This document shows positions 5,012 to 48,271 of a stretch of DNA of 64,000 bases, piece by piece. This DNA comes from Pseudomonadota bacterium (GTDB lineage: Bacteria; Desulfobacterota; Desulfarculia; Desulfarculales; Desulfarculaceae), in the NCBI GenBank assembly GCA_018819925.1, contig JAHJPG010000096.1, positions 207 through 64,206 on the forward strand, given 5' to 3'. The position numbers and the translations under genes were made by a program. The notes below the pieces were generated by a model. The model saw nothing but the letters and a program-made list of their open reading frames with translations, was not told the origin of the DNA and ran no database searches. Positions within the stretch are counted from its first letter, which is position 1. Every line of letters begins with the position of its first letter.

Positions 5012-5152
5012 ATGCAAAAAGTCCTAACCAACCCGGCCGACATGAGCGCCCGCCAAATGGCGAAAGGCGCTTTCGCACCGGTGTTTGGTGGCTGGCTTTA
5101 TTGGTGGCGTTCACCCATGACGGTGCGCTCCGCCGGGGAGAAGCCAACCTAG
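5012..5152 (+). CDS. trpL: Trp-rich leader peptide (46 aa, ...GAFAPVFGGWLYWWRSP...)
   Basis: AAGGGAG RBS then ATG at 5012, TAG at 5150-5152; W-L-Y-W-W-R; followed by an intrinsic terminator and trpE. Confidence 0.85.
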   Translation: MQKVLTNPADMSARQMAKGAFAPVFGGWLYWWRSPMTVRSAGEKPT

Positions 5153-5181
5153 GCCTTTAAACTCCCAAGCCAGACAGCGAG

Positions 5182-5214
5182 CCCACCGTCAAAGTGACGG
5201 TGGGTTTTTCTTTT
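5182..5214 (+). terminator. attenuator terminator before trpE
   Basis: CCCACCGTCA-AAG-TGACGGTGGG followed by TTTTTCTTTT; the 5' arm can alternatively pair with TGACGGTG at 5118-5125. Confidence 0.9.
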
Positions 5215-5230
5215 GCCGCGAAGGATAATA

Positions 5231-7260: not shown

Positions 7261-8301
7261 ATGGTCATCACCATGCAGCCGGGCTGCCCCAAGGGCGACG
7301 TGGCCCGGGTTATATCGGCCCTGCGCCGGGCCGGCCTGGAACCGCGCATCATCTCCTCGGACCCCCGGGTGGTCCTGGGAGTGGTGGAGGAGATCAGCCC
7401 GGCCGAGGCCGAGCGCCTGACCCAGGATGTGGGTGGCTTGGACGGGGTGGAGGAAATCACCAGTTTCGAGAAATCCTGGAAGCTGGTGTCCAAGAGCTTC
7501 AAGGCCGAAACAACCCAGGTGCAGTTGGGCTCCTTGAGCGTGGGGGGGCCGGAGGTGCTGGCGGCCGCCGGGCCCTGCGCGGTGGAGAGCCGGGAAAACT
7601 TTTTGGAAACCGCCCTCCTGCTGCACCAGGCCGGGGCCGGGGCGCTCCGGGGCGGGGCCTTCAAACCCCGCACCAGCCCATACTCCTTCCGGGGCATGGG
7701 CGAGGAGGGGCTCAAGATCATGGCCGAGGCCAGGGAGATCACCGGCCTGCCCATCATCACCGAGGTGCTCACCGCCTCGGAGGTGGATATGGTGGCCCGC
7801 TACGCCGACGTGTTGCAGATCGGCACCCGCAACATGCAGAACTTCGCCCTGTTGGAGGCGGTGGGCGAAACCGACCGTCCGGTCCTGCTCAAACGGGGCA
7901 TGATGGCCAGCATCAAGGAGCTGCTGCTCTCGGCCGAGTACATCGTGGCCCGGGGCAACTGGCAGGTGATGCTCTGCGAACGGGGCATCCGCACCTTTGA
8001 GACCGAGACCCGCAACACCCTGGACCTCAGCGCGGTGCCGCTACTCAAGCAATACACCCATTTGCCGGTGGTGGTGGACCCCAGCCACGCGGCGGGCAAG
8101 CGCGAATTAGTGCCGGCCCTGGCCCTGGCCGCGGTGGCCGCCGGGGCGGACGGCATCCTGGTGGAGGTGCACCCCCGCCCAGAGGAGGCCCTGAGCGACG
8201 GCCGCCAGAGCCTGAGGCCCGGGCAGTTCACTGACATGATGGCCGGCTTGCGGCGGGTGGCGGCGGCGGTGGGCCGCCAGTTGCGGGAGGCCGGGGCATG
8301 A
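7261..8301 (+). CDS. aroF: DAHP synthase type I-beta with N-terminal ferredoxin-like/ACT regulatory domain
   Basis: [55 protein letters not shown]; about 70-aa N-terminal extension MVITMQPG... Confidence 0.93.
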
Positions 8302-9548: not shown

Positions 9549-10363
9549 TTCGTCTGGCGGTGATAGGCGACCAGCGGGTGATCCACTCCTTGTCGCCGCG
9601 CATGCACAACGCGGTGCTCAAAGAGGAGGGCCTGGCGGGCAGCTATGTGGCCATCCCCGTGGAGGCGGACCAGCTGGGCGCGTTTCTGGGAAGCCTGGCC
9701 GGGGGGGGCTTTGCCGGAGTGAACGTGACCGTGCCCCACAAGCAGGCGGTGCTGCCATTTTTGGACCACCTGGGCGAGGAAGCCACTACCTTGGGAGCCG
9801 TGAACACCATCGTGGTCAAGGGTGAACGCCTGGAGGGCGGCAACACCGATTGCCCCGGTTTCGCCCAGGCCTTGACCGAAACCGGCTATGCGGCCTCGGG
9901 GCGTCCCGCCCTGGTGGTGGGCGCGGGCGGGGCTGCCCGTTCGGTGGTGCTGGCCCTGGCCCGGCTGGGGGCCGCGCCCCTGTGGGTGGCCGCCCGGCGT
10001 CCCGCCCAGGCCCGGGCCCTGTGCGCCGAGCTAGGCGGCGAGGCCATAGACATGGAACAGGCCGCCCTGGCCGTGGCCGACGCCCGCTTGCTGGTAAACG
10101 CGGCTGCCGCCTCCAGCCCGAAGGAATCGCCCGAACTGGCCGCCTGGGCAGGATCTCTTAACGCGTCCCGCTTGGAGCAGGTGATGGACATCAACTATGG
10201 ACGCAACGACAACTTCTGGGCCGAACTGGCCCAAGCTCACGATGCCCGCTTTGCCGACGGCCTGGTCATGCTGGCCCATCAGGCGGCCCTGAGCTTCACC
10301 CGCTGGACCGGGCGGCCGGTGGCCGGGGCGCGCTTCCTGGCCGCCCTGGAGGGTGCGGCATGA
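9545..10363 (+). CDS. aroE: shikimate dehydrogenase
   Basis: GTG start overlapping aroA stop; HSLSPRMHN, NVTVPHK, GAVNT, NTD, GAGGAA, DGLVMLAHQA. Confidence 0.93.
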   Translation: MIRLAVIGDQRVIHSLSPRMHNAVLKEEGLAGSYVAIPVEADQLGAFLGSLAGGGFAGVNVTVPHKQAVLPFLDHLGEEATTLGAVNTIVVKGERLEGGNTDCPGFAQALTETGYAASGRPALVVGAGGAARSVVLALARLGAAPLWVAARRPAQARALCAELGGEAIDMEQAALAVADARLLVNAAAASSPKESPELAAWAGSLNASRLEQVMDINYGRNDNFWAELAQAHDARFADGLVMLAHQAALSFTRWTGRPVAGARFLAALEGAA

Positions 10364-11919
10364 GCGGCAACATCTACCTCACCGGCTTCATGGGCGCGGG
10401 CAAGAGCACCGTGGGCCGCCTGCTGGCCCAGGCCCTGGGCCGCCGCCTGGTGAGCCTGGACCAGCGCATCGTCCGCCGTTTGCGCCAGCCCGTCACCGAG
10501 GCCTTCGCCCGCCGGGGCGAGGAGGTTTTTCGCCAAGTCGAGAGCGAGGAGCTGGCTAGAGTGGCCGGGGAAAAGGGCCTGGTGGTGGACCTGGGCGGCG
10601 GAGCGGCGGTCAGCGAGCATAACCGCGAGCTGATGCACGCCAGCGGCGGCATCGTGCACCTGGCCGCCGGCCTGGACACCTGCCGCAAGCGCCTGGGGCC
10701 CCACGAGGTGTCCACCCGCCCCCTGTGGCGGGACAAGAAAGCCGTGGAGCGGCTCTTCAAGGCCCGGCAAGAGGCCTACGCCGATTGCGGCCTCAGGGTG
10801 GAGGTGGATCAGCTTGACGCCGGGCAGGCGGCCCAGGCCGTGGCCGCCGGTTTGTTGGGGGTGGAGGAGTTCACCCTGGAGATGGAGGGCAAGCCCTGCC
10901 TGGTGCATAGCTCCTGGGGAGCCCAGGCGGCCCTGGCCGAGGCCACCGAGGGCCGCCGGGTGGTGCTGCTCACCGACCGCAAGGTGGCCGCCCTGCACGG
11001 GGCCCGCTACCGCGAGGCGCTGGGCGATCATCTGCTGATAACCTTGCCGCCGGGCGAGAACAGCAAGAGCCTCAAAACCGCCGAGAAGGTGTACCAGCAG
11101 ATGCTGGCCGCGCGCATCGAGCGCGGGGACATGCTCCTGGCCCTGGGCGGCGGAGTGATGACCGACCTGGGGGCCTTTGTGGCCGCCACCTACAAGCGGG
11201 GCATGGACTTTCTGCTGGCCTCCACCACCCTGCTGGGCTGCGTGGACGCGGCGGTGGGCGGCAAGGCTGCGGTGAACCTGGGCCCGGCCAAAAACCAGGT
11301 GGGCTGTTTTACTCAGCCGCGCATGGTGCTCCTGGACCTGCAAGCCCTGGCCACCCTGCCCAAGTCCCAGCGGGTGGAGGGCCTGGCCGAGGCCTACAAG
11401 ACCGGCCTGGTGGCCGACCCCGAGCTGGCCCGTTTGTGCCAGCAGGATATGGACCTGTTCTTAAAGGGCGAGGTGCTGGGCCTGGCCCAGGTGGTGCGCC
11501 GCTCGGTGCGGGCCAAGGCCGAAGTGGTGGGCCAGGACTTTCGCGAAGGCGGCCGCAGGGCCATACTTAACTTCGGCCACACCTATGGCCACGCCCTGGA
11601 GGGCTGGCACCGCTACCGCCTGGGTCACGGCCAGGCCGTGGGCGGGGGCATGCTGGTGGCTACGGCCCTATCCGCCGGGCGCGGTATGCTGACGCAGGAG
11701 CAGGCCGAATCGATTTACCGCACGGTCAAGCCCCTGCTGCCCGCTGACCTGGCCTGGGCCCCGGCGGAAGAGGCCTGGGAGATCATGTTGGACGACAAAA
11801 AGAACATCAAGGGCAAGGTGCGTTTCGTGCTTTTGAAGGAAGTGGGCCAGCCGGTGGTGGTGGACGATGTGACCCCCCAGGAACTGGCCCAGGCCCTGGC
11901 CCAGGCGCGAGAGATATAA
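10360..11919 (+). CDS. aroKB: bifunctional shikimate kinase / 3-dehydroquinate synthase
   Basis: N-terminal TGFMGAGKS P-loop, DLGGG, RPL (AroK); C-terminal LGGGVMTDL, TTLLGCVDAAVGGK, LNFGHTYGHALE, HGQAV, DKK (AroB). Confidence 0.93.
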   Translation: MSGNIYLTGFMGAGKSTVGRLLAQALGRRLVSLDQRIVRRLRQPVTEAFARRGEEVFRQVESEELARVAGEKGLVVDLGGGAAVSEHNRELMHASGGIVHLAAGLDTCRKRLGPHEVSTRPLWRDKKAVERLFKARQEAYADCGLRVEVDQLDAGQAAQAVAAGLLGVEEFTLEMEGKPCLVHSSWGAQAALAEATEGRRVVLLTDRKVAALHGARYREALGDHLLITLPPGENSKSLKTAEKVYQQMLAARIERGDMLLALGGGVMTDLGAFVAATYKRGMDFLLASTTLLGCVDAAVGGKAAVNLGPAKNQVGCFTQPRMVLLDLQALATLPKSQRVEGLAEAYKTGLVADPELARLCQQDMDLFLKGEVLGLAQVVRRSVRAKAEVVGQDFREGGRRAILNFGHTYGHALEGWHRYRLGHGQAVGGGMLVATALSAGRGMLTQEQAESIYRTVKPLLPADLAWAPAEEAWEIMLDDKKNIKGKVRFVLLKEVGQPVVVDDVTPQELAQALAQAREI

Positions 11920-11921
11920 TC

Positions 11922-12983
11922 ATGAGCAGCTTCAGCGGCGAAATCCTCAAGGTGGCCACCTTTGGCGAGTCCCACGGCCCGGCCGTGGGGGTGGTGGTGG
12001 AGGGCGCTCCTGCCGGGATCGCCCTGGAGCGCCAGGCCATCCAGGACGAGCTGGACCGCCGCCGCCCGGGAACCACGCCCTTGGCTTCGGCCCGCCAGGA
12101 GGCCGACCAGGTGGAGATACTCTCCGGGGTGGCCGATGGCCGCACCCTGGGCAGCCCCATCGCCTTGCTGGTGCGCAACATTGACGCCCGCTCCAAGGAC
12201 TACTCGGCCCTGGCCGACAAGTTCCGCCCCGGCCACGCCGACTACACCTACTGGCGCAAGTACGGCCTGCCGCCCCAGCCCGGCGGGGGGCGCTCCTCGG
12301 GCCGCGAGACCGTGGGCCGGGTGGCCGCCGGGGCGGTGGCCCGGGCCATCTTGGCGCCTTTGGGCGTGGAGCTTGCGGCCTACACCATTCAGGTGGGGCC
12401 GATTAGGGCTGGGGCCATTGATCCGGCCTTTGCCCGTGAGCATCCCCTGCGCGCCGCAGATCCCAACCAGGCCGAGGCCATGGTGGCCGAGGTCATGGCC
12501 GCCCGCGCCGCCGGCGATTCGGTGGGCGGGGTGGTGGAGTTGGTGATAAACGGAGCGCCAGCCGGTCTGGGCGATCCGGTGTTCGGCAAGCTGGACGCCC
12601 GCCTGGGCGGGGCCATGCTCTCCATCGGCGGGGTCAAGGGGGTGGAGATCGGCGACGGCTTTGCCGCAGCCGCCCGCCGGGGCTCGGCCAACAACGACCA
12701 GATGGACGCGGACGGATTTTTGTCCAACCACTGCGGCGGCATTTTGGGGGGCATCAGCAACGGCATGCCCTTGGTGCTGCGCCTGGCCATCAAGCCCACC
12801 CCCTCCATATCCCAGGTCCAGCGCACCCAAAACCTGGCGGGCGAGGCGGTGGAGATAAGCATCGCCGGGCGGCACGACCCCTGCCTGTGCGGGCGCATCG
12901 CCCCGGTGGCCGAGGCCATGGCCGCCCTGGTGCTGGCCGACGCCTGGCTCATGCAAAAGGCCCAGGCAAGGAGCGAAAAATGA
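11922..12983 (+). CDS. aroC: chorismate synthase
   Basis: TFGESHGPAVG, RRRPG, RPGHAD, GGGRSSGRETVGRVAAGA, GDSVGG, GGILGGISNG, KPTPSI, GRHDPC. Confidence 0.97.
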   Translation: MSSFSGEILKVATFGESHGPAVGVVVEGAPAGIALERQAIQDELDRRRPGTTPLASARQEADQVEILSGVADGRTLGSPIALLVRNIDARSKDYSALADKFRPGHADYTYWRKYGLPPQPGGGRSSGRETVGRVAAGAVARAILAPLGVELAAYTIQVGPIRAGAIDPAFAREHPLRAADPNQAEAMVAEVMAARAAGDSVGGVVELVINGAPAGLGDPVFGKLDARLGGAMLSIGGVKGVEIGDGFAAAARRGSANNDQMDADGFLSNHCGGILGGISNGMPLVLRLAIKPTPSISQVQRTQNLAGEAVEISIAGRHDPCLCGRIAPVAEAMAALVLADAWLMQKAQARSEK

Positions 12984-13420
12984 AGATCCTGCTGCTCAAC
13001 GGACCCAACCTGAACATGCTGGGCCGCCGCGAGTCCGAGCACTACGGCAGCCTGACCCTTGATGAGATCAACCGGCGGATGGGTGAATTGGCCAACGTGC
13101 TGGGCCTGGAGCTGGGCTTTGCCCAATCCAACCACGAGGGCGAGCTGGTGGACATCCTGCAAGGGGCGGCCCCGGAGTACGCCGGGGTGGCGCTCAACGC
13201 CGGGGGCTACACCCACACCAGCGTGGCCATCCGCGATGCGGTGCTCTGCTGCGGGGTGCCGGTGGTGGAGGTGCATCTGAGCAACCCGGCGGCCCGCGAG
13301 GAGTTTCGCCGTTTCTCCTATTTGTCCGGGGCCTGCGCGGGATCAGTGGCCGGTTTCGGTTGGCGCTCCTACGCCTTGGCCCTGCATTGGTTCGCCATGT
13401 TACAAGGCGATGAACAATAG
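12980..13420 (+). CDS. aroQ: type II 3-dehydroquinate dehydratase
   Basis: LLNGPNLNMLGRRE..YG, QSNHEGELVD, NAGGYTHTSVAIRDA, EVHLSN..ARE.FR. Confidence 0.96.
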   Translation: MKILLLNGPNLNMLGRRESEHYGSLTLDEINRRMGELANVLGLELGFAQSNHEGELVDILQGAAPEYAGVALNAGGYTHTSVAIRDAVLCCGVPVVEVHLSNPAAREEFRRFSYLSGACAGSVAGFGWRSYALALHWFAMLQGDEQ

Positions 13421-13450
13421 GGCCGTTGGCGGGGCGTTGTTCTTTTGCCA

Positions 13451-13479
13451 TTGACAAGCCCGGCCCCGAGGGGTTTACT
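13451..13479 (+). promoter_or_regulatory. sigma70-like promoter of Phe/Tyr operon
   Basis: TTGACA-17bp-TTTACT. Confidence 0.6.
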
Positions 13480-13531
13480 TAGCACAACCCAACTCGGTCC
13501 AAAATGGACTGGCAAGGAACCTAAAGTAAAA

Positions 13532-13645
13532 ATGACGGGCAGAGCGGAAATAATGATTGACGGCCAGGGGCGATTTAGCTCCGGGGACGTCTTTTTTTAT
13601 TTTTATTATTTTACCGCCGTCTGCCCAAGGGCTGGGGAGGGTTAA
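13532..13645 (+). CDS. pheL: Phe/Tyr leader peptide (37 aa, ...DVFFYFYYFTAV...)
   Basis: AAGGA upstream of ATG 13532 (alternative ATG 13553); codons TTT TTT TAT TTT TAT TAT TTT at 13592-13612, highly anomalous in a GC3-rich genome; terminator follows. Confidence 0.88.
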   Translation: MTGRAEIMIDGQGRFSSGDVFFYFYYFTAVCPRAGEG

Positions 13646-13672
13646 CGCCGAACTAGGCTAAACCAAGCAACC

Positions 13673-13715
13673 AAGGCCATGGGCAGACTGAGAAAGTCGC
13701 CCATGGCCTTTTTTT
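13673..13715 (+). terminator. attenuator terminator before aroF2-pheA-tyrA
   Basis: AAGGCCATGGGC..GAC-TGAGAAA-GTC..GCCCATGGCCTT + TTTTT; alternative pairing of TGGGCAGAC (13680-88) with GTCTGCCCA (13619-27). Confidence 0.9.
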
Positions 13716-13772
13716 GTTTGGGGCAGGCGGGGCGACCAGAAGTTGGCTCTGGCAATAAGAGGAACGATAAAG

Positions 13773-14675
13773 ATGGCACTGGCAAGTAAAATGGAAAGTA
13801 AAGTGGCAGCGGTCGAGGCGGTGACCGCCGGGGCGGTGGCTCAACGGCTCAAACCCCAGGCGTTGCTGGTAAGCCGCGAGGCCAAATCCGAGGACACCGT
13901 GGTTCACGCCGGGGCGGTGAGCGTGGGCGGCGGCAGTTTTACGGTCATCGCCGGGCCCTGCTCGGTGGAGAACGCCGAGCAGATGCTCTGTACCGCCCAG
14001 TGGGCCAAGCGCTACGGCGCGGCCATTCTCAGGGGCGGGGCTTACAAGCCGCGCACCTCTCCTTACAGCTTCCAGGGGTTGGGCCAGGAAGGCCTGGAGC
14101 TTTTGGCCCAGGCCCGCCGGCTCACCGGCCTGCCGGTGGTCACCGAGGTGATGGACACCAGCGACATAGAGCTGGTGGCCCAATACGCCGACGTGATCCA
14201 GGTGGGGGCACGCAATGTGCAGAACTTCTCCCTGCTGCGCAAGCTGGGCCAGGTGCGCCGTCCCATCCTCATGAAGCGCGGCCTGATGACCACCATCAAG
14301 GAATTCCTCATGGCCGCCGAGTACATCCTGGCTGGGGGCAACGACCAGGTCATCCTGTGCGAGCGAGGCATCCGCACCTTCGAGACGGCCACCCGCAACA
14401 CTCTGGATCTCAGCGCGGTGTGCGTGCTCAAGGAAATGACCCACCTGCCGGTGGTGGTGGACCCCAGCCACGCGGTGGGCAACCGCCGTTACGTCAAGCC
14501 CCTGGCCCGCGCCTCCCTGGCGGTGGGCGCCGACGGCATCATGGTGGAGATGCACTGCACCCCGGAAAAAGCCCTTTGCGACGGCGATCAGTCCCTGACC
14601 CCCAAGGAATTTTCAGCCATGATGGAAGAACTTAAAGCCATGACCGCCCTGCGCCAGGGCTGGTTGGCCTGCTAA
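13773..14675 (+). CDS. aroF: DAHP synthase type I-beta lacking the N-terminal regulatory domain
   Basis: [50 protein letters not shown]; only about 30 aa before the catalytic barrel; start ATG 13773 after AGAGGA. Confidence 0.9.
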
Positions 14676-14687
14676 AGGAACACAGCC

Positions 14688-15821
14688 ATGACTACCATGC
14701 CCAGCCAAGCCATGCCCGAAACCGGCGCCGCGAAGCTTGACAACCCCGCCGCCGAGGGCATCAAGGTGCTTCGCGAAGAGATAGACAGGATCGACAGGGA
14801 GTTGCTGGGGCTGCTCAACCAGCGGGCCCGCCTGGCCTTGAAGATCGGCCGGCGCAAACAGGCCGCCGGAATGCCGGTGTTCGTGCCCGAGCGCGAGAAC
14901 GACTTGTTGGACAAGCTCGCCAAGAGCAATCGCGGCCCCTTGCCCGACGGCTACCTGCGCAACATCTTCCGCGAGGTGGTCTCCGCCTGCCGTTCGGTGC
15001 AGCAGCCCCTACGAGTGGCTTTCCTGGGACCGGAGTTCACCTTTAGCCACCAGGCCGCCTTGCAGCACTTTGGCCATAGCTGCACGCTGGCCCCCCAGAC
15101 CGGCATTGCCGAGGTTTTCCGCGAGGTGGAGGGAGGCCGTTGCCAGGTGGGCCTGGTGCCGGTGGAAAACTCCGGAGAGGGTGCGGTGGGCGCTTCCCTG
15201 GATCAGTTCATGACCACCCCGCTCAAGGTTTGCGGCGAGGTTTTCACCCCCATAAGCCACATGCTCATGTCCCGCGAGGAGGACCTGGACGCCATCGCCA
15301 CGGTCTACTCCCACCCCCAAGCCCTGGCCCAGTGCCGGGCCTGGTTGAGCCGCAATATGCCCCAGGCCCGGGTGGCCGAGGCTCCCAGCACCGCCGCCGC
15401 CGCCCGACTGGCGGCCGATAACGCCGGTTCGGCAGCGGTGGGCGCCGCCGCCGCCGCCGGGCAGCATGGTCTGAAGATTCTGGCCGAGAACATTCAGGAC
15501 TATTCCCACAACACCACCCGTTTCTTGGTGATCGGCACCCAGGATGTGCCCCCTTGCGGCCAGGACAAGACCACCTTGATGTTTTTGACCGCCCACCGCC
15601 CCGGTTCCCTGTACCAGGCACTGGGCGAGTTGGCCGAATTGGGCATAAACCTTAGCCGCATCGAGAGCCGCCCCACCAAGGACCGGCCCTGGGAATACGC
15701 CTTCTTCGTGGACCTGCACGGTCATCGGCAGGATTCGAAGGTGGCCAAGGCCCTGGCCGCCTTGGAGAGTCAGGTGGAGCGCCTAAGGGTGTTGGGATCT
15801 TTTCCCATTGGAGAGATGTAG
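14688..15821 (+). CDS. pheA: chorismate mutase / prephenate dehydratase (P-protein)
   Basis: LREEIDRIDRELLGLLNQR..IGRRK..FVPERE (AroQ CM); FLGPEFTFSHQAA, VPVENSGEG, SHPQALAQC, NTTRF, GINLSRIESRP (PDT+ACT). Confidence 0.96.
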   Translation: MTTMPSQAMPETGAAKLDNPAAEGIKVLREEIDRIDRELLGLLNQRARLALKIGRRKQAAGMPVFVPERENDLLDKLAKSNRGPLPDGYLRNIFREVVSACRSVQQPLRVAFLGPEFTFSHQAALQHFGHSCTLAPQTGIAEVFREVEGGRCQVGLVPVENSGEGAVGASLDQFMTTPLKVCGEVFTPISHMLMSREEDLDAIATVYSHPQALAQCRAWLSRNMPQARVAEAPSTAAAARLAADNAGSAAVGAAAAAGQHGLKILAENIQDYSHNTTRFLVIGTQDVPPCGQDKTTLMFLTAHRPGSLYQALGELAELGINLSRIESRPTKDRPWEYAFFVDLHGHRQDSKVAKALAALESQVERLRVLGSFPIGEM

Positions 15822-15823
15822 CC

Positions 15824-16675
15824 ATGAACTCGGAGGATGATTTTAGAGGCATTGCCTCGCCCGCCCGGCCCGGCTCCGCCGCCGAGCTGACCGTGGGCAT
15901 AATCGGGGCCCAGGGCCGCATGGGCTCGTGGATGCGCCGCCTGCTGGAGCCGGCGGTGGGCCGTCTGCTCACCGCCGACATAAAGGGCGAGCCGGTCACC
16001 CCGGAGTGGGTGGCCGGCTGCCAGGTGATCATCCTGGCCGTGCCGGTGCATGCGGTGGAAGGGGTGATGGAGGCCATCGGCCCCCACACCGACCCCGAGG
16101 GAGTGGTGGTGGATATCTCCTCGCTCAAGCAAATGCCCCTGACCAGCATGCTGGCCCATGCCCGTGGAGAGGTGGTGGGGGCCCATCCCCTGTTCGGCCC
16201 CGGCGCGCCCTCCCTGGAGGGTCAGGTGGTGTTCCTCAGTCAGGGCCGGGGCCGGCGCTGGCTGGCCTGGTTTCGCGGCTTTTTGCGCCAACAGGGAGCC
16301 CGGCCGGTGGTCATGGCCCCAGAGCGCCACGACCGGCTCATGGCCCAGGTGCAGACGCTCAGGCATCTGCTGCTCTACGCCTTTGGCTGGAGCCTGATGC
16401 GCATGGGCTACAGCCCAGAGGCCGACGGCGACATCTCCGGCCCCTGGTTCCGCGAGTTGCTGACCCTTCTGGCCCGCCAGAGCGCCCAACCCGCCGAGCT
16501 CTACGCCGATTTGGCCCTGAACAACCCCGGCGGCCTGGACGCGGCCCGCACCCTGCTGCAAGGCCTGGGCTCCATGGTCTCGGCCCTGGAAGGCAAGGAC
16601 CGGGGGGCCCTGGTGCACACCATGGACGAAGTGGGGGCTTTCATGAAAAACAGCCGAGCCGAACTCTGTGCTTGA
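15824..16675 (+). CDS. tyrA: prephenate dehydrogenase
   Basis: GIIGAQGRMG Rossmann, ILAVP, VDISSLKQ, GAHPLFGP, PERHDRLMAQVQ.L.H; follows pheA. Confidence 0.9.
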   Translation: MNSEDDFRGIASPARPGSAAELTVGIIGAQGRMGSWMRRLLEPAVGRLLTADIKGEPVTPEWVAGCQVIILAVPVHAVEGVMEAIGPHTDPEGVVVDISSLKQMPLTSMLAHARGEVVGAHPLFGPGAPSLEGQVVFLSQGRGRRWLAWFRGFLRQQGARPVVMAPERHDRLMAQVQTLRHLLLYAFGWSLMRMGYSPEADGDISGPWFRELLTLLARQSAQPAELYADLALNNPGGLDAARTLLQGLGSMVSALEGKDRGALVHTMDEVGAFMKNSRAELCA

Positions 16676-16731: not shown

Positions 16732-16803
16732 ATGTTTAACACTGCGTGGCGCTATTGGTGGCGGAACTGGAATAGGAGTGGTCCACCCGCGCCGGGGCGT
16801 TAG
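16732..16803 (+). CDS. trpL: Trp leader peptide A (MFNTAWRYWWRNWNRSGPPAPGR)
   Basis: ACGGAG RBS, ATG 16732, 4 Trp codons in 23 aa, TAG 16801-03. Confidence 0.9.
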   Translation: MFNTAWRYWWRNWNRSGPPAPGR

Positions 16804-16827
16804 GCACCAAAGCTAAAGCAGGCAATC

Positions 16828-16874
16828 ACCGGGGCCGTGGACCACAAGAGGGTTCACGGCCCCGGTTCTTTTTT
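16828..16874 (+). terminator. attenuator terminator A
   Basis: 16-bp stem ACCGGGGCCGTGGACC / GGTTCACGGCCCCGGT + TCTTTTTT; antiterminator GTGGTCCAC(16778-86):GTGGACCAC(16837-45). Confidence 0.92.
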
Positions 16875-16892
16875 GAGGCAAGGCAGGACGGC

Positions 16893-16976
16893 ATGAACAT
16901 CGAGCGGCATACATTCCAAGGCGTTTATGGGTGGCGGTGGTGGCGTTTCACCAAACGGGAGTCCGTTTTGCCCTAG
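16893..16976 (+). CDS. trpL: Trp leader peptide B (MNIERHTFQGVYGWRWWRFTKRESVLP)
   Basis: CAGGAC upstream, ATG 16893, W-R-W-W-R, TAG 16974-76. Confidence 0.88.
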   Translation: MNIERHTFQGVYGWRWWRFTKRESVLP

Positions 16977-17003
16977 ACCGCCCTCAGGCGCCGGGCCAAG
17001 CAA

Positions 17004-17044
17004 CCGCGGACTCCCAAGTGGGGAGTTCGCGGATTTTGTTTTTT
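17004..17044 (+). terminator. attenuator terminator B
   Basis: 12-bp stem CCGCGGACTCCC / GGGAGTTCGCGG + TTTTGTTTTTT; antiterminator GGGAGTCCG(16957-65):CGGACTCCC(17007-15). Confidence 0.92.
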
Positions 17045-17064
17045 AGAGGTGGGAGAAAGCAGCC

Positions 17065-46681: not shown

Positions 46682-48271
46682 ATGCGACGTTTCGACAATC
46701 CCGATGTGACCATCACTGATGTAATGGCAAGTTACGGCAAGTGGCGGGCGTCCAAGACGGCGGTGGTTTGCGGCCCGGAGGCGATCACTTGGAGGGAGTT
46801 CAACAACCGCATCAACCAGGTGGCCAACCGGCTCATGGCCCTGGGCCTGAGCAAGGGCGACAAGGTCAGTCTGCTGTCGGGCAATTGCATCGAGGTGCTC
46901 ATCGTCCTGTTCGGGATCATCAAGGCCGGCGGGGTGGCGGTCCCCCTGAGCGTCATGGTCCAGGGCGATTCCCTGGCCCGCATGGTGATCGACTCGGACA
47001 GCAGGTTTTTATTCGTCCACTCCTCAATGGCCCCGGTCATGGATCCATTTCGGGATGACTTCAACCGCATAGCGCCCGATGGCTACGTGGTCATCGGCGA
47101 CGGGGCTTCCGGTTGGACTCCGTTGGAAGATTTCCTGGAGGGGGCCTCGCGGCAGGAGCCGGGGGTGCGCTTGGCTTATGAGGACCCCATCAACATCATG
47201 TACACCTCGGGCACCACCGGCGTGCCCAAGGGCATCGTGCATACCCACCACAACCGCCTTCACTTCGCCATGTCCTTTGCCACGGAGTTTCGTTGCGACT
47301 CCAGCGCGGTGAACATCGTCGCCACCGCCCTCTACGCCAACGGCACCTGGCTGACCATGCTGCCCACCATGCTCAACGGTGGGACTCTGGTCATAATGCC
47401 CAAGTTCGACCCGCAGGAGTTTTTGGGCTTGGTCCAGAAGCACCGCTGCACCAACACCTTCATGGTGCCCACCCAGTTCACCATCCTGCTGGAGCAGGAA
47501 AATTTCGAAGAGTATGACCTGAGCTCCATGCGGGTGTGGCTCTCGGCCGGCAGCCCCTTCCGTCCGGCGGTGAAGCGCCAGGTGCTGGAGCGATTCCCCG
47601 GCGACCTCATGGAGCTATGGGGGCTCACCGAAGGGGTGGGCACCATCCTGCGCCCCGAGGAAATGGCGGAAAAAACGGAATCGGTGGGCATCCCGCGCCT
47701 GGGCTGGGAGGTGGGAATCATAGACGAGCAGGGCAACGAGCTGCCCCACGGCGAGATCGGCGAGATCGTGGCCTATAGTTCCTGGCTCATGCCCCAATAT
47801 TACAAGCTCCCCGAAAAAACCGAGGAGGCCATCTGGTTGGACCGGCACGGCAGGACCTACCTGCGCACCGGGGACATGGGAAAGCTGGACCGGGACGGCT
47901 TCCTCTACATCCTGGACCGCAAGAAAGACATGATAATCAGCGGGGGCATCAACATCTTTGCCAGCGACATCGAGGAGGTGGCCTGCCGGCTTCCGGAGGT
48001 GGCCGACGTGGTGGTGATCGGGGTGCCCCACCCCAAATGGGGCGAAACCCCGGTCGCCCTGGTGGTCCCCAAGACCGGGGCCGCCGCCGACCTGGAGGCC
48101 ATAAAGCAACGCCTCAATAATAATCTCGCTAAATACCAGCGGGTTAGCCAGGTCATCCTTCGTGAGGATTTCCCCCGCAATGTTTTGGGCAAGGTGCTCA
48201 AGCGGGAGTTGCGCGATGAGTACCGGGACCTAAACAGTGAGGTGGCCCCCAGGGATCGAACGGTCGTGTGA
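46682..48271 (+). CDS. AMP-dependent acyl-CoA synthetase
   Basis: YTSGTTGVPKG, WGLTEG, RTGD, DRKKD.IISGG.NI, GK..KR. Confidence 0.93.
   Translation: MRRFDNPDVTITDVMASYGKWRASKTAVVCGPEAITWREFNNRINQVANRLMALGLSKGDKVSLLSGNCIEVLIVLFGIIKAGGVAVPLSVMVQGDSLARMVIDSDSRFLFVHSSMAPVMDPFRDDFNRIAPDGYVVIGDGASGWTPLEDFLEGASRQEPGVRLAYEDPINIMYTSGTTGVPKGIVHTHHNRLHFAMSFATEFRCDSSAVNIVATALYANGTWLTMLPTMLNGGTLVIMPKFDPQEFLGLVQKHRCTNTFMVPTQFTILLEQENFEEYDLSSMRVWLSAGSPFRPAVKRQVLERFPGDLMELWGLTEGVGTILRPEEMAEKTESVGIPRLGWEVGIIDEQGNELPHGEIGEIVAYSSWLMPQYYKLPEKTEEAIWLDRHGRTYLRTGDMGKLDRDGFLYILDRKKDMIISGGINIFASDIEEVACRLPEVADVVVIGVPHPKWGETPVALVVPKTGAAADLEAIKQRLNNNLAKYQRVSQVILREDFPRNVLGKVLKRELRDEYRDLNSEVAPRDRTVV

Follow-up and report, generated by a model that had tools for sequence, protein, structure and literature searches.

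The window analysed here is the whole 64,000-nucleotide (nt) stretch of contig JAHJPG010000096.1, from a bacterium of the family Desulfarculaceae, and all positions refer to it unless another contig is given. At 13532–13715 the window contains a short open reading frame (ORF) with a block of aromatic codons, followed by a hairpin and a T-tract. Downstream are three genes, as follows: a gene for 3-deoxy-D-arabinoheptulosonate 7-phosphate (DAHP) synthase, hereafter DAHPS, which is the second of three paralogs in the genome, then pheA, then tyrA. An initial annotation of this DNA had placed the leader ahead of an aroF2-pheA-tyrA operon, and the three gene identifications agree with it. The probable start of the DAHPS gene is ATG 13773, with AAGAGGAA 8 nt upstream; the best match of TyrA, at an E-value of 2.6e-45, is below curated cut-offs. 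The element is very probably a classical ribosome-mediated leader-peptide transcription attenuator that controls the DAHPS-pheA-tyrA operon. The coordinates are collected in the table below.

The predicted leader peptide is MTGRAEIMIDGQGRFSSGDVFFYFYYFTAVCPRAGEG. Its regulatory run, FFYFYYF, consists of four Phe TTT and three Tyr TAT codons, as first described, and all seven codons end in T. A crude codon tally over 1640 long ORFs of the assembly gives a G+C fraction at third codon positions (GC3) of ~0.78, with TTT at ~29% of Phe codons and TAT at ~31% of Tyr codons. Seven T-ending codons out of seven are therefore a marked bias, and the description of a T-ending run in a GC3-rich genome holds. 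When all 8.06 million codon positions of the 4.03-Mb assembly were scanned in six frames, only two runs of at least seven Phe, Tyr or Trp residues turned up. Both lie just upstream of DAHPS paralogs, one being the run at 13592–13612 and the other starting at C145:47995. A chance origin of the aromatic run is excluded.

Folding of the full leader (13500–13725) gives −89.3 kcal/mol with a z-score of −5.6, and the minimum free energy (MFE) structure consists of a 1:2 hairpin and a 3:4 terminator. Segment 1 has the core GGGCAGA(G)CGG (13537–47), which pairs with CCG/UCUGCCC; the MFE structure has a longer hairpin, 13537–13556 with 13603–13626, which alone has −39.7 kcal/mol and a z-score of −4.0. 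Segment 2 begins inside the aromatic run. Its 5′ half (13603–13617, including codons Y25–F27) has segment 1 as its only partner, and its 3′ half (13619–13630) can pair with segment 1 or, alternatively, with segment 3. The 2:3 antiterminator is an exact match between GUCUGCCCA (13619–27) and UGGGCAGAC (13680–88), extended by GG:CC past one A-A mismatch, and it is the MFE structure of 13612–13695 at −35.6 kcal/mol. In the terminator, AAGGCCAUGGGC (13673–84) pairs with GCCCAUGGCCUU (13699–13710), an inner GAC:GUC stem is added, and the T7 tract follows; this fold has −29.7 kcal/mol and a z-score of −5.6. A simple terminator scan returned nothing at 13673–13715, as it allows loops of up to 8 nt and the outer loop exceeds this. 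Segments 1 and 3 share the core GGGCAGA and compete for segment 2. Helixes 1:2, 2:3 and 3:4 are mutually exclusive. The folds and pairings bear out the helix coordinates first proposed for 1:2, for the antiterminator and for the terminator at 13673–13715. The leader has a translatable short ORF, a Phe/Tyr codon cluster, an intrinsic terminator, an antiterminator and an anti-antiterminator.

Table. Features of the Phe/Tyr leader and its flanking genes; positions are those of the window.
Feature	Position	Strand	Description and basis
aroK/aroB	10360–11919		Upstream of the leader
aroC	11922–12983		Upstream of the leader
aroQ	12887–13420		Upstream of the leader
Possible −35 hexamer TTGACA	13451–13456	+	Tentative element of a leader transcript promoter; read from the sequence
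5′ stem-loop CGGUCCA-AAA-UGGACUG	13494–13512	+	Just 5′ of the Shine–Dalgarno-like motif; MFE fold
Shine–Dalgarno-like motif AAGGAA	13514–13519	+	13 nt before the leader AUG; sequence
Leader peptide ORF	13532–13645	+	ATG 13532, TAA 13643–13645, 38 codons; translation
Segment 1	13537–13556	+	5′ arm of the 1:2 anti-antiterminator, leader codons 2–9; MFE folds
Regulatory run TTT TTT TAT TTT TAT TAT TTT	13592–13612	+	Codons 21–27
Segment 2	13603–13630	+	Starts inside the run
Segment 3	13673–13688	+	Terminator 5′ arm; 13680–13688 (plus 13677–78) also antiterminator 3′ arm
Segment 4 and T7	13696–13715	+	Terminator 3′ arm 13696–13710, T7 tract 13709–13715
DAHPS, type I-beta	13773–14675	+	NCBIfam NF006421, TIGR01361
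pheA, chorismate mutase/prephenate dehydratase	14688–15821	+	NCBIfam NF008865 and chorismate mutase domain models
tyrA, prephenate dehydrogenase	15824–16675	+	Best NCBIfam matches are prephenate dehydrogenase models

An orthologous DAHPS gene is present in all 40 relatives searched, and the loci of 30 relatives, from seven families, were retrieved. The initial annotation had suggested a homolog survey, and this one found a clearly orthologous leader in 27 of the 30 loci and a degenerate version in one (L026). The other two loci (L029 and L030, of another family) have non-homologous Phe/Tyr-rich ORFs with their own terminators. In all 30, pheA follows the DAHPS gene, and tyrA comes next wherever the locus is long enough. 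The features kept across the class are the ORF, the mixed Phe/Tyr run, segment 2, the terminator hairpin with its T-tract, and the order leader-DAHPS-pheA-tyrA. Orthologous runs include FFYFYYF, FYFYFYYF, YFYFSFYYF, FFFNYYYFYF, YYYFYFY and YYGYFY. Together the 27 orthologous leaders contain 98 Phe codons (86% TTT), 97 Tyr codons (86% TAT) and no Trp codon; both Phe and Tyr occur in every one, with at least three Tyr each. In 27–28 relatives the AUG is conserved, mostly 19–21 codons before the run, the frame is open, and the stop codon lies 9–14 codons after the run. A GAGG or AAGG motif is found 13–18 nt 5′ of this conserved AUG, with A-rich sequence in between. At some run positions the relatives show synonymous TTC/TAC changes and Phe/Tyr exchanges, and the TTC/TAC variants fit selection on the reading frame, beyond U/A-richness alone. 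An in-frame ATG at 13553 was considered as the leader start and rejected; it is not conserved in relatives and sits within the 1:2 stem.

Alignment-based pairing was counted in 28 sequences (alignment A1). For the terminator, 98.5% of cells are paired and six of the twelve pairs have changed on both sides; none of 500 shuffles was as good, and slid versions were 21–58% paired. For the antiterminator, 92.9% of cells are paired, versus 31–41% in slid controls, and the central pair, 202:276, reads UA 20 times and CG seven times, the latter in at least three lineages. Helix 1:2 is only 69% paired in A1, the 5′ part of which aligns poorly. This helix was judged sequence by sequence with a contiguous-helix search, an unconstrained RNAduplex run on whole flanks having given long spurious interactions. 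The longest helix partner of segment 2 begins −3 to +11 nt from the AUG in 14 of the 28 sequences; the six closest relatives have the same GGGCAGA at +5 in A1, though the longest helix found by the search there is a spurious 8-mer. Compensatory 1:2 variants in relatives include GAGCAGA:UCUGCUC, ACAGGCAGA:UCUGCCUGU and GGCGGA:UCCGCC, and segments 1, 2 and 3 change together, as CAGA/UCUG/CAGA versus CGGA/UCCG/CGGA. In most relatives segment 2 sets in 0–3 nt past the Thr or Ser codon that trails the run. The two ends of the peptide, MTGR… and …AVCPRAGE, are conserved at the amino acid level. These ends are explained by the RNA, because segments 1 and 2, with which they coincide, are complementary and change along with segment 3. 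The comparative evidence, i.e., the conservation and the compensatory changes in terminator and antiterminator, strongly supports reading the element as an attenuator, as the initial annotation did.

The mechanism is proposed to run as follows. With ample Phe-tRNA and Tyr-tRNA, the ribosome would pass the run, cover segment 2 and reach the stop codon; after its passage 1:2 would re-form, 3:4 would fold, and transcription would stop at 13715. A shortage of either charged tRNA would stall the ribosome within the first five codons of the run, hiding the 5′ half of segment 2 and leaving GUCUGCCCA exposed to pair with UGGGCAGAC. The terminator would then not form, and RNA polymerase would enter the operon. 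Lack of either amino acid should elicit this response, as Phe codons 1, 2 and 4 and Tyr codons 3 and 5 are predicted to lie in the productive stalling window. Segment 1, which abuts the start codon, would probably be occupied by the next initiating ribosome or by a queued one; steric or kinetic exclusion might be another way to sideline it. Counted from the A of the AUG, segment 1 starts 5 nt downstream, and the conserved spacer of ~20 codons to the run has a length of about two ribosome footprints.

These states were modeled by constrained folding of 13490–13716, with ribosome-covered nucleotides forced to be single-stranded. The fold without a ribosome has 1:2 and the terminator, and the terminator also forms with the ribosome placed on run codons 6–7 or on the stop codon. 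A ribosome at run codons 2–5 (F, Y, F, Y) gives the antiterminator, only when segment 1 is masked too.

Further leaders bear on the question of which amino acids are sensed. Outside the window, a 45-codon ORF, MNHQRGQFKSQDATAGVLPRSAAFFYFYYYAPATETVSLPGVRKV, contains the second long aromatic run of the assembly, FFYFYYY, at C145:47995. The leader to which it belongs (C145:47926–48121) has its own terminator (48090–48121) and is not homologous to the leader at 13532. The run lies 178 nt upstream of the third DAHPS paralog, a stand-alone gene at C145:48173–49243. In relatives, the runs of third-paralog leaders are YYYYY (G003), YLYYYYY (G007), YVFGYYYYY (G006) and YYYYYF (G019). The C145-type leader is therefore a candidate Tyr-specific attenuator. 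Tyr-only leaders are hard to account for unless Tyr codons have a regulatory role in this lineage.

A covariance model, R1, was made to extend from the run through the terminator (136 positions). R1 matched 186 of 401 genomes in an even sample of the phylum, or 120 of 254 genera. All 17 of the out-of-family loci inspected (L124–L140) have an aromatic leader followed by the same …VCP… segment (GUCUGCCC). A DAHPS gene is downstream in 14 of these 17, and also in L123, the leader of which has only a short YYYFS run. Where pheA follows the DAHPS gene, leaders lack Trp in 15 of 16 loci; where it does not, one or two Trp codons are present in 11 of 11 leaders, for example YSYNFWYYFYYYFPPVCPSLWRT. 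Leader codon content appears to track operon content, a suggestive pattern among loci that are phylogenetically related. Dual sensing of Phe and Tyr is plausible, and the evidence leans towards it, because all 27 orthologous leaders hold both residues, the third-paralog leaders are dominated by Tyr, and Trp tracks the absence of pheA.

As to spacing, at L124–L135 and L140, where leaders contain Trp and no pheA follows the DAHPS gene, the DAHPS gene starts ~380–445 nt past the run.

A sensor of Phe only is the main alternative to dual sensing. The Tyr codons would then be tolerated, with UAU keeping the run U/A-rich and able to pair with AAAUAAUGA in segment 1, and Tyr-tRNA would never become limiting enough to stall the ribosome. 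UUU and UAU do differ by a single base, and the run does pair with an A-rich stretch of segment 1. There is also a precedent. In Corynebacterium glutamicum a Phe-Tyr-Phe leader, aroR, was detected upstream of aroF (Mentz et al. 2013, PMC4046766), and, in the account of Neshat et al. 2014 given in PMC11802643, aroR-controlled transcription goes up on Phe limitation, with Tyr availability reportedly without effect. Yet mere tolerance sits poorly with Tyr being as frequent as Phe in the 27 orthologous leaders, none of which has fewer than three Tyr codons. Some members are Tyr-dominated, such as YYYFYFY and YYGYFY, some relatives have third-paralog leaders with Tyr only, and the controlled operon contains tyrA. 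We consider a Phe-only sensor unlikely. Two further alternatives question the attenuator itself, and both are very improbable. The hairpin and T-tract could be the constitutive terminator of the upstream trpE…aroQ operon, with the aromatic ORF unrelated or fortuitous; the stretch from the aroQ stop (13420) to the leader has no other terminator, and no clear leader promoter was found in the scan. But the hairpin lies 250 nt past aroQ and after the ORF, and segment 2 is complementary to its 5′ arm in nearly all relatives, with covariation. Moreover, the ORF and its Phe/Tyr run are conserved phylum-wide, also where no aroQ is upstream, and the genome has a second, non-homologous Phe/Tyr leader with a terminator ahead of another DAHPS paralog. 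The remaining alternative is a functional aromatic-rich micropeptide, or a control of DAHPS translation rather than transcription. The preservation of MTG… and …AVCPRAGE at the amino acid level would suit a micropeptide; however, conservation does not extend to the middle of the peptide, and the conserved ends coincide with covarying RNA segments 1 and 2, which are complementary both to one another and to segment 3. Translational control is at odds with a terminator that lies ~60 nt upstream of the DAHPS Shine–Dalgarno sequence, leaving the latter unsequestered, and with a U-tract typical of transcription termination.

Several observations weigh against the attenuator with dual sensing as set out above, beginning with the report on Tyr for aroR, the sole precedent that has been studied. 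When segment 1 is left free and one ribosome is stalled, the outer 7 bp of 1:2 close around the ribosome and the terminator stays. Antitermination is thus assumed to require that segment 1 be out of play, since the single-ribosome equilibrium folds keep the terminator. The seven CG covariants of the antiterminator come from related genomes, so they represent fewer separate events than cells, and the T-tract is weak or interrupted in a few relatives. The only Shine–Dalgarno-like motif before the leader AUG lies 13 nt or more away from it, which is unusually far. Neither a good −10 box nor a convincing leader promoter was found by a simple promoter scan and by reading the sequence.

Likeness to aroR is one of function. 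Both are short mixed Phe/Tyr leader ORFs before a DAHPS gene, in which ribosome-stalling attenuation would gate the first common aromatic step. The likeness is an analogy by published description, across phyla, and no homology is claimed. The aroR run is F-Y-F, versus seven contiguous codons (four Phe, three Tyr) here; the operon here adds pheA and tyrA, and separate Trp-type and Tyr-rich leaders serve the two other DAHPS paralogs. The novelty implied by the initial annotation was overstated, as a Phe-Tyr-Phe leader before aroF was already published (PMC4046766, PMC11802643). The mechanism is of a known kind, the Phe/Tyr idea has published precedent, and no new mechanism is involved. Two traits are mildly unusual, namely the position of segment 1 at the start codon and the layout of three paralogs with three leaders. 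In the trp, his and pheL leaders the regulatory codons lie in segment 1; those of the present leader occupy the loop and 3′ arm of 1:2 instead.

The pheL-pheA leader of Escherichia coli (Rfam Phe_leader) resembles the present one in its run of Phe codons, its 1:2, 2:3 and 3:4 helixes, its intrinsic terminator and its control of pheA. Regulatory codons in pheL are for Phe only. The present leader differs also in having no match to an Rfam leader family over 12500–14500 at E-values up to 10, where only chance hits to miRNA and snoRNA models were seen; in nine related loci no Rfam match reached the gathering score. Multivalent leaders matched to the controlled pathway are known from the E. coli thr (Thr/Ile) and ilvGMEDA (Leu/Val/Ile) operons. 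They share with the present leader the use of codons for more than one amino acid in one leader, and differ in amino acids and pathways; there is no sequence relationship. With AroF, AroG and AroH, E. coli likewise has three DAHPS paralogs, each linked to its own aromatic end product. Their specificity comes from allosteric feedback and the TyrR and TrpR repressors (PMC11802643), in contrast to the leader peptide that each DAHPS paralog has here. A 2005 survey placed Tyr genes under T-boxes, not attenuators (PMC1262725). Our literature search found no Phe/Tyr leader for Geobacter or the delta-proteobacteria, and no description of the Desulfobacterota family; Rodionov et al. 2004 (PMC545781) mention no attenuator or aromatic leader, and Korolev et al. 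2016 (PMC4833913) contains nothing relevant.

A bolder proposal combines these features. The leader would be a two-ribosome sensor, in which antitermination takes one ribosome halted on the Phe/Tyr codons and a second, queued or initiating, over segment 1; the three leaders together would form an attenuation-only equivalent of the three-isozyme system of E. coli, including the first truly Tyr-responsive leader peptides. We put this forward tentatively, as it is more likely wrong than right.

The results extend leader-peptide attenuation of aromatic amino acid synthesis to the Desulfobacterota. The family is large, uncatalogued and without an Rfam model, and R1 can be used to annotate such operons. 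The make-up of the leader varies with the operon: DAHPS-pheA-tyrA goes with Phe and Tyr codons; a DAHPS gene without pheA attached goes with Phe, Tyr and Trp; and the stand-alone paralog goes with a Tyr-rich leader. The comparison also lends support to Tyr-sensing leader peptides, for which aroR, the one experimental precedent, offers no demonstration.

The neighboring genes carry further leaders. The first DAHPS paralog (7261–8301) lies inside the trpE…aroQ operon, which is preceded by a Trp-type leader at 5013–5215 (ATG 5013, …FGGWLYWWR…) with a terminator. The three paralogs thus have three leaders: Trp (5013–5215), Phe and Tyr (13532) and Tyr-rich (C145). The 5013–5215 and C145 leaders have the same terminator stem, CCCACCGUC/GACGGUGGG, and the same GACGGUG segment 2, which suggests that these two attenuators have a common ancestor and that the main difference between them is in the regulatory codons. 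Downstream of tyrA are trpD, trpC, trpF and trpB. Between tyrA and trpD, at 16733–17046, lie two tandem Trp-codon leaders, …AWRYWWRNWN… and …YGWRWWRF…, both having a hairpin and T-tract of their own. Because these terminators sit between tyrA and trpD, the unit under the Phe/Tyr leader is DAHPS-pheA-tyrA, with tyrA last.

Upstream of the leader ORF, the stem-loop at 13494–13512 has compensatory variants in close relatives (GGUC/GACC and GGCCC/GGGCC in A1) and may be a stabilizer of the 5′ end. The TTGACA stretch is retained in the nearest relatives, within a conserved upstream translation context.

Short ORFs of a similar kind were seen before DAHPS genes outside the phylum. At L043, L048, L051 and L055 (Leptospira/Spirochaetota), ORFs with Phe/Tyr/Trp runs, such as …SKSFYFWFYYFYSRARL, lie upstream of DAHPS. 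Similar mixed-aromatic ORFs precede DAHPS at L084, L085 and L094 (Clostridia/Bacillota) and at L099 (Sutterella); the phyla are unrelated and the theme is widespread. Another set comes from metagenome-assembled genomes labelled Methanosarcinales (L056, L068, L082 and L100) and from Woesearchaeota (L108). There, ORFs of ~25 codons lie ~130–330 nt before DAHPS and end in an aromatic run right before the stop codon, as in …FKLDVFPYFFFYFG and …FKLDFFSFYFFYFK. Downstream of these ORFs come a conserved inverted repeat, UCCUGGGA…UCCCAGGA, and GGUUUAGUUAAA, with no Rfam match. These archaeal-labelled ORFs are possible candidates for leader-peptide sensors.

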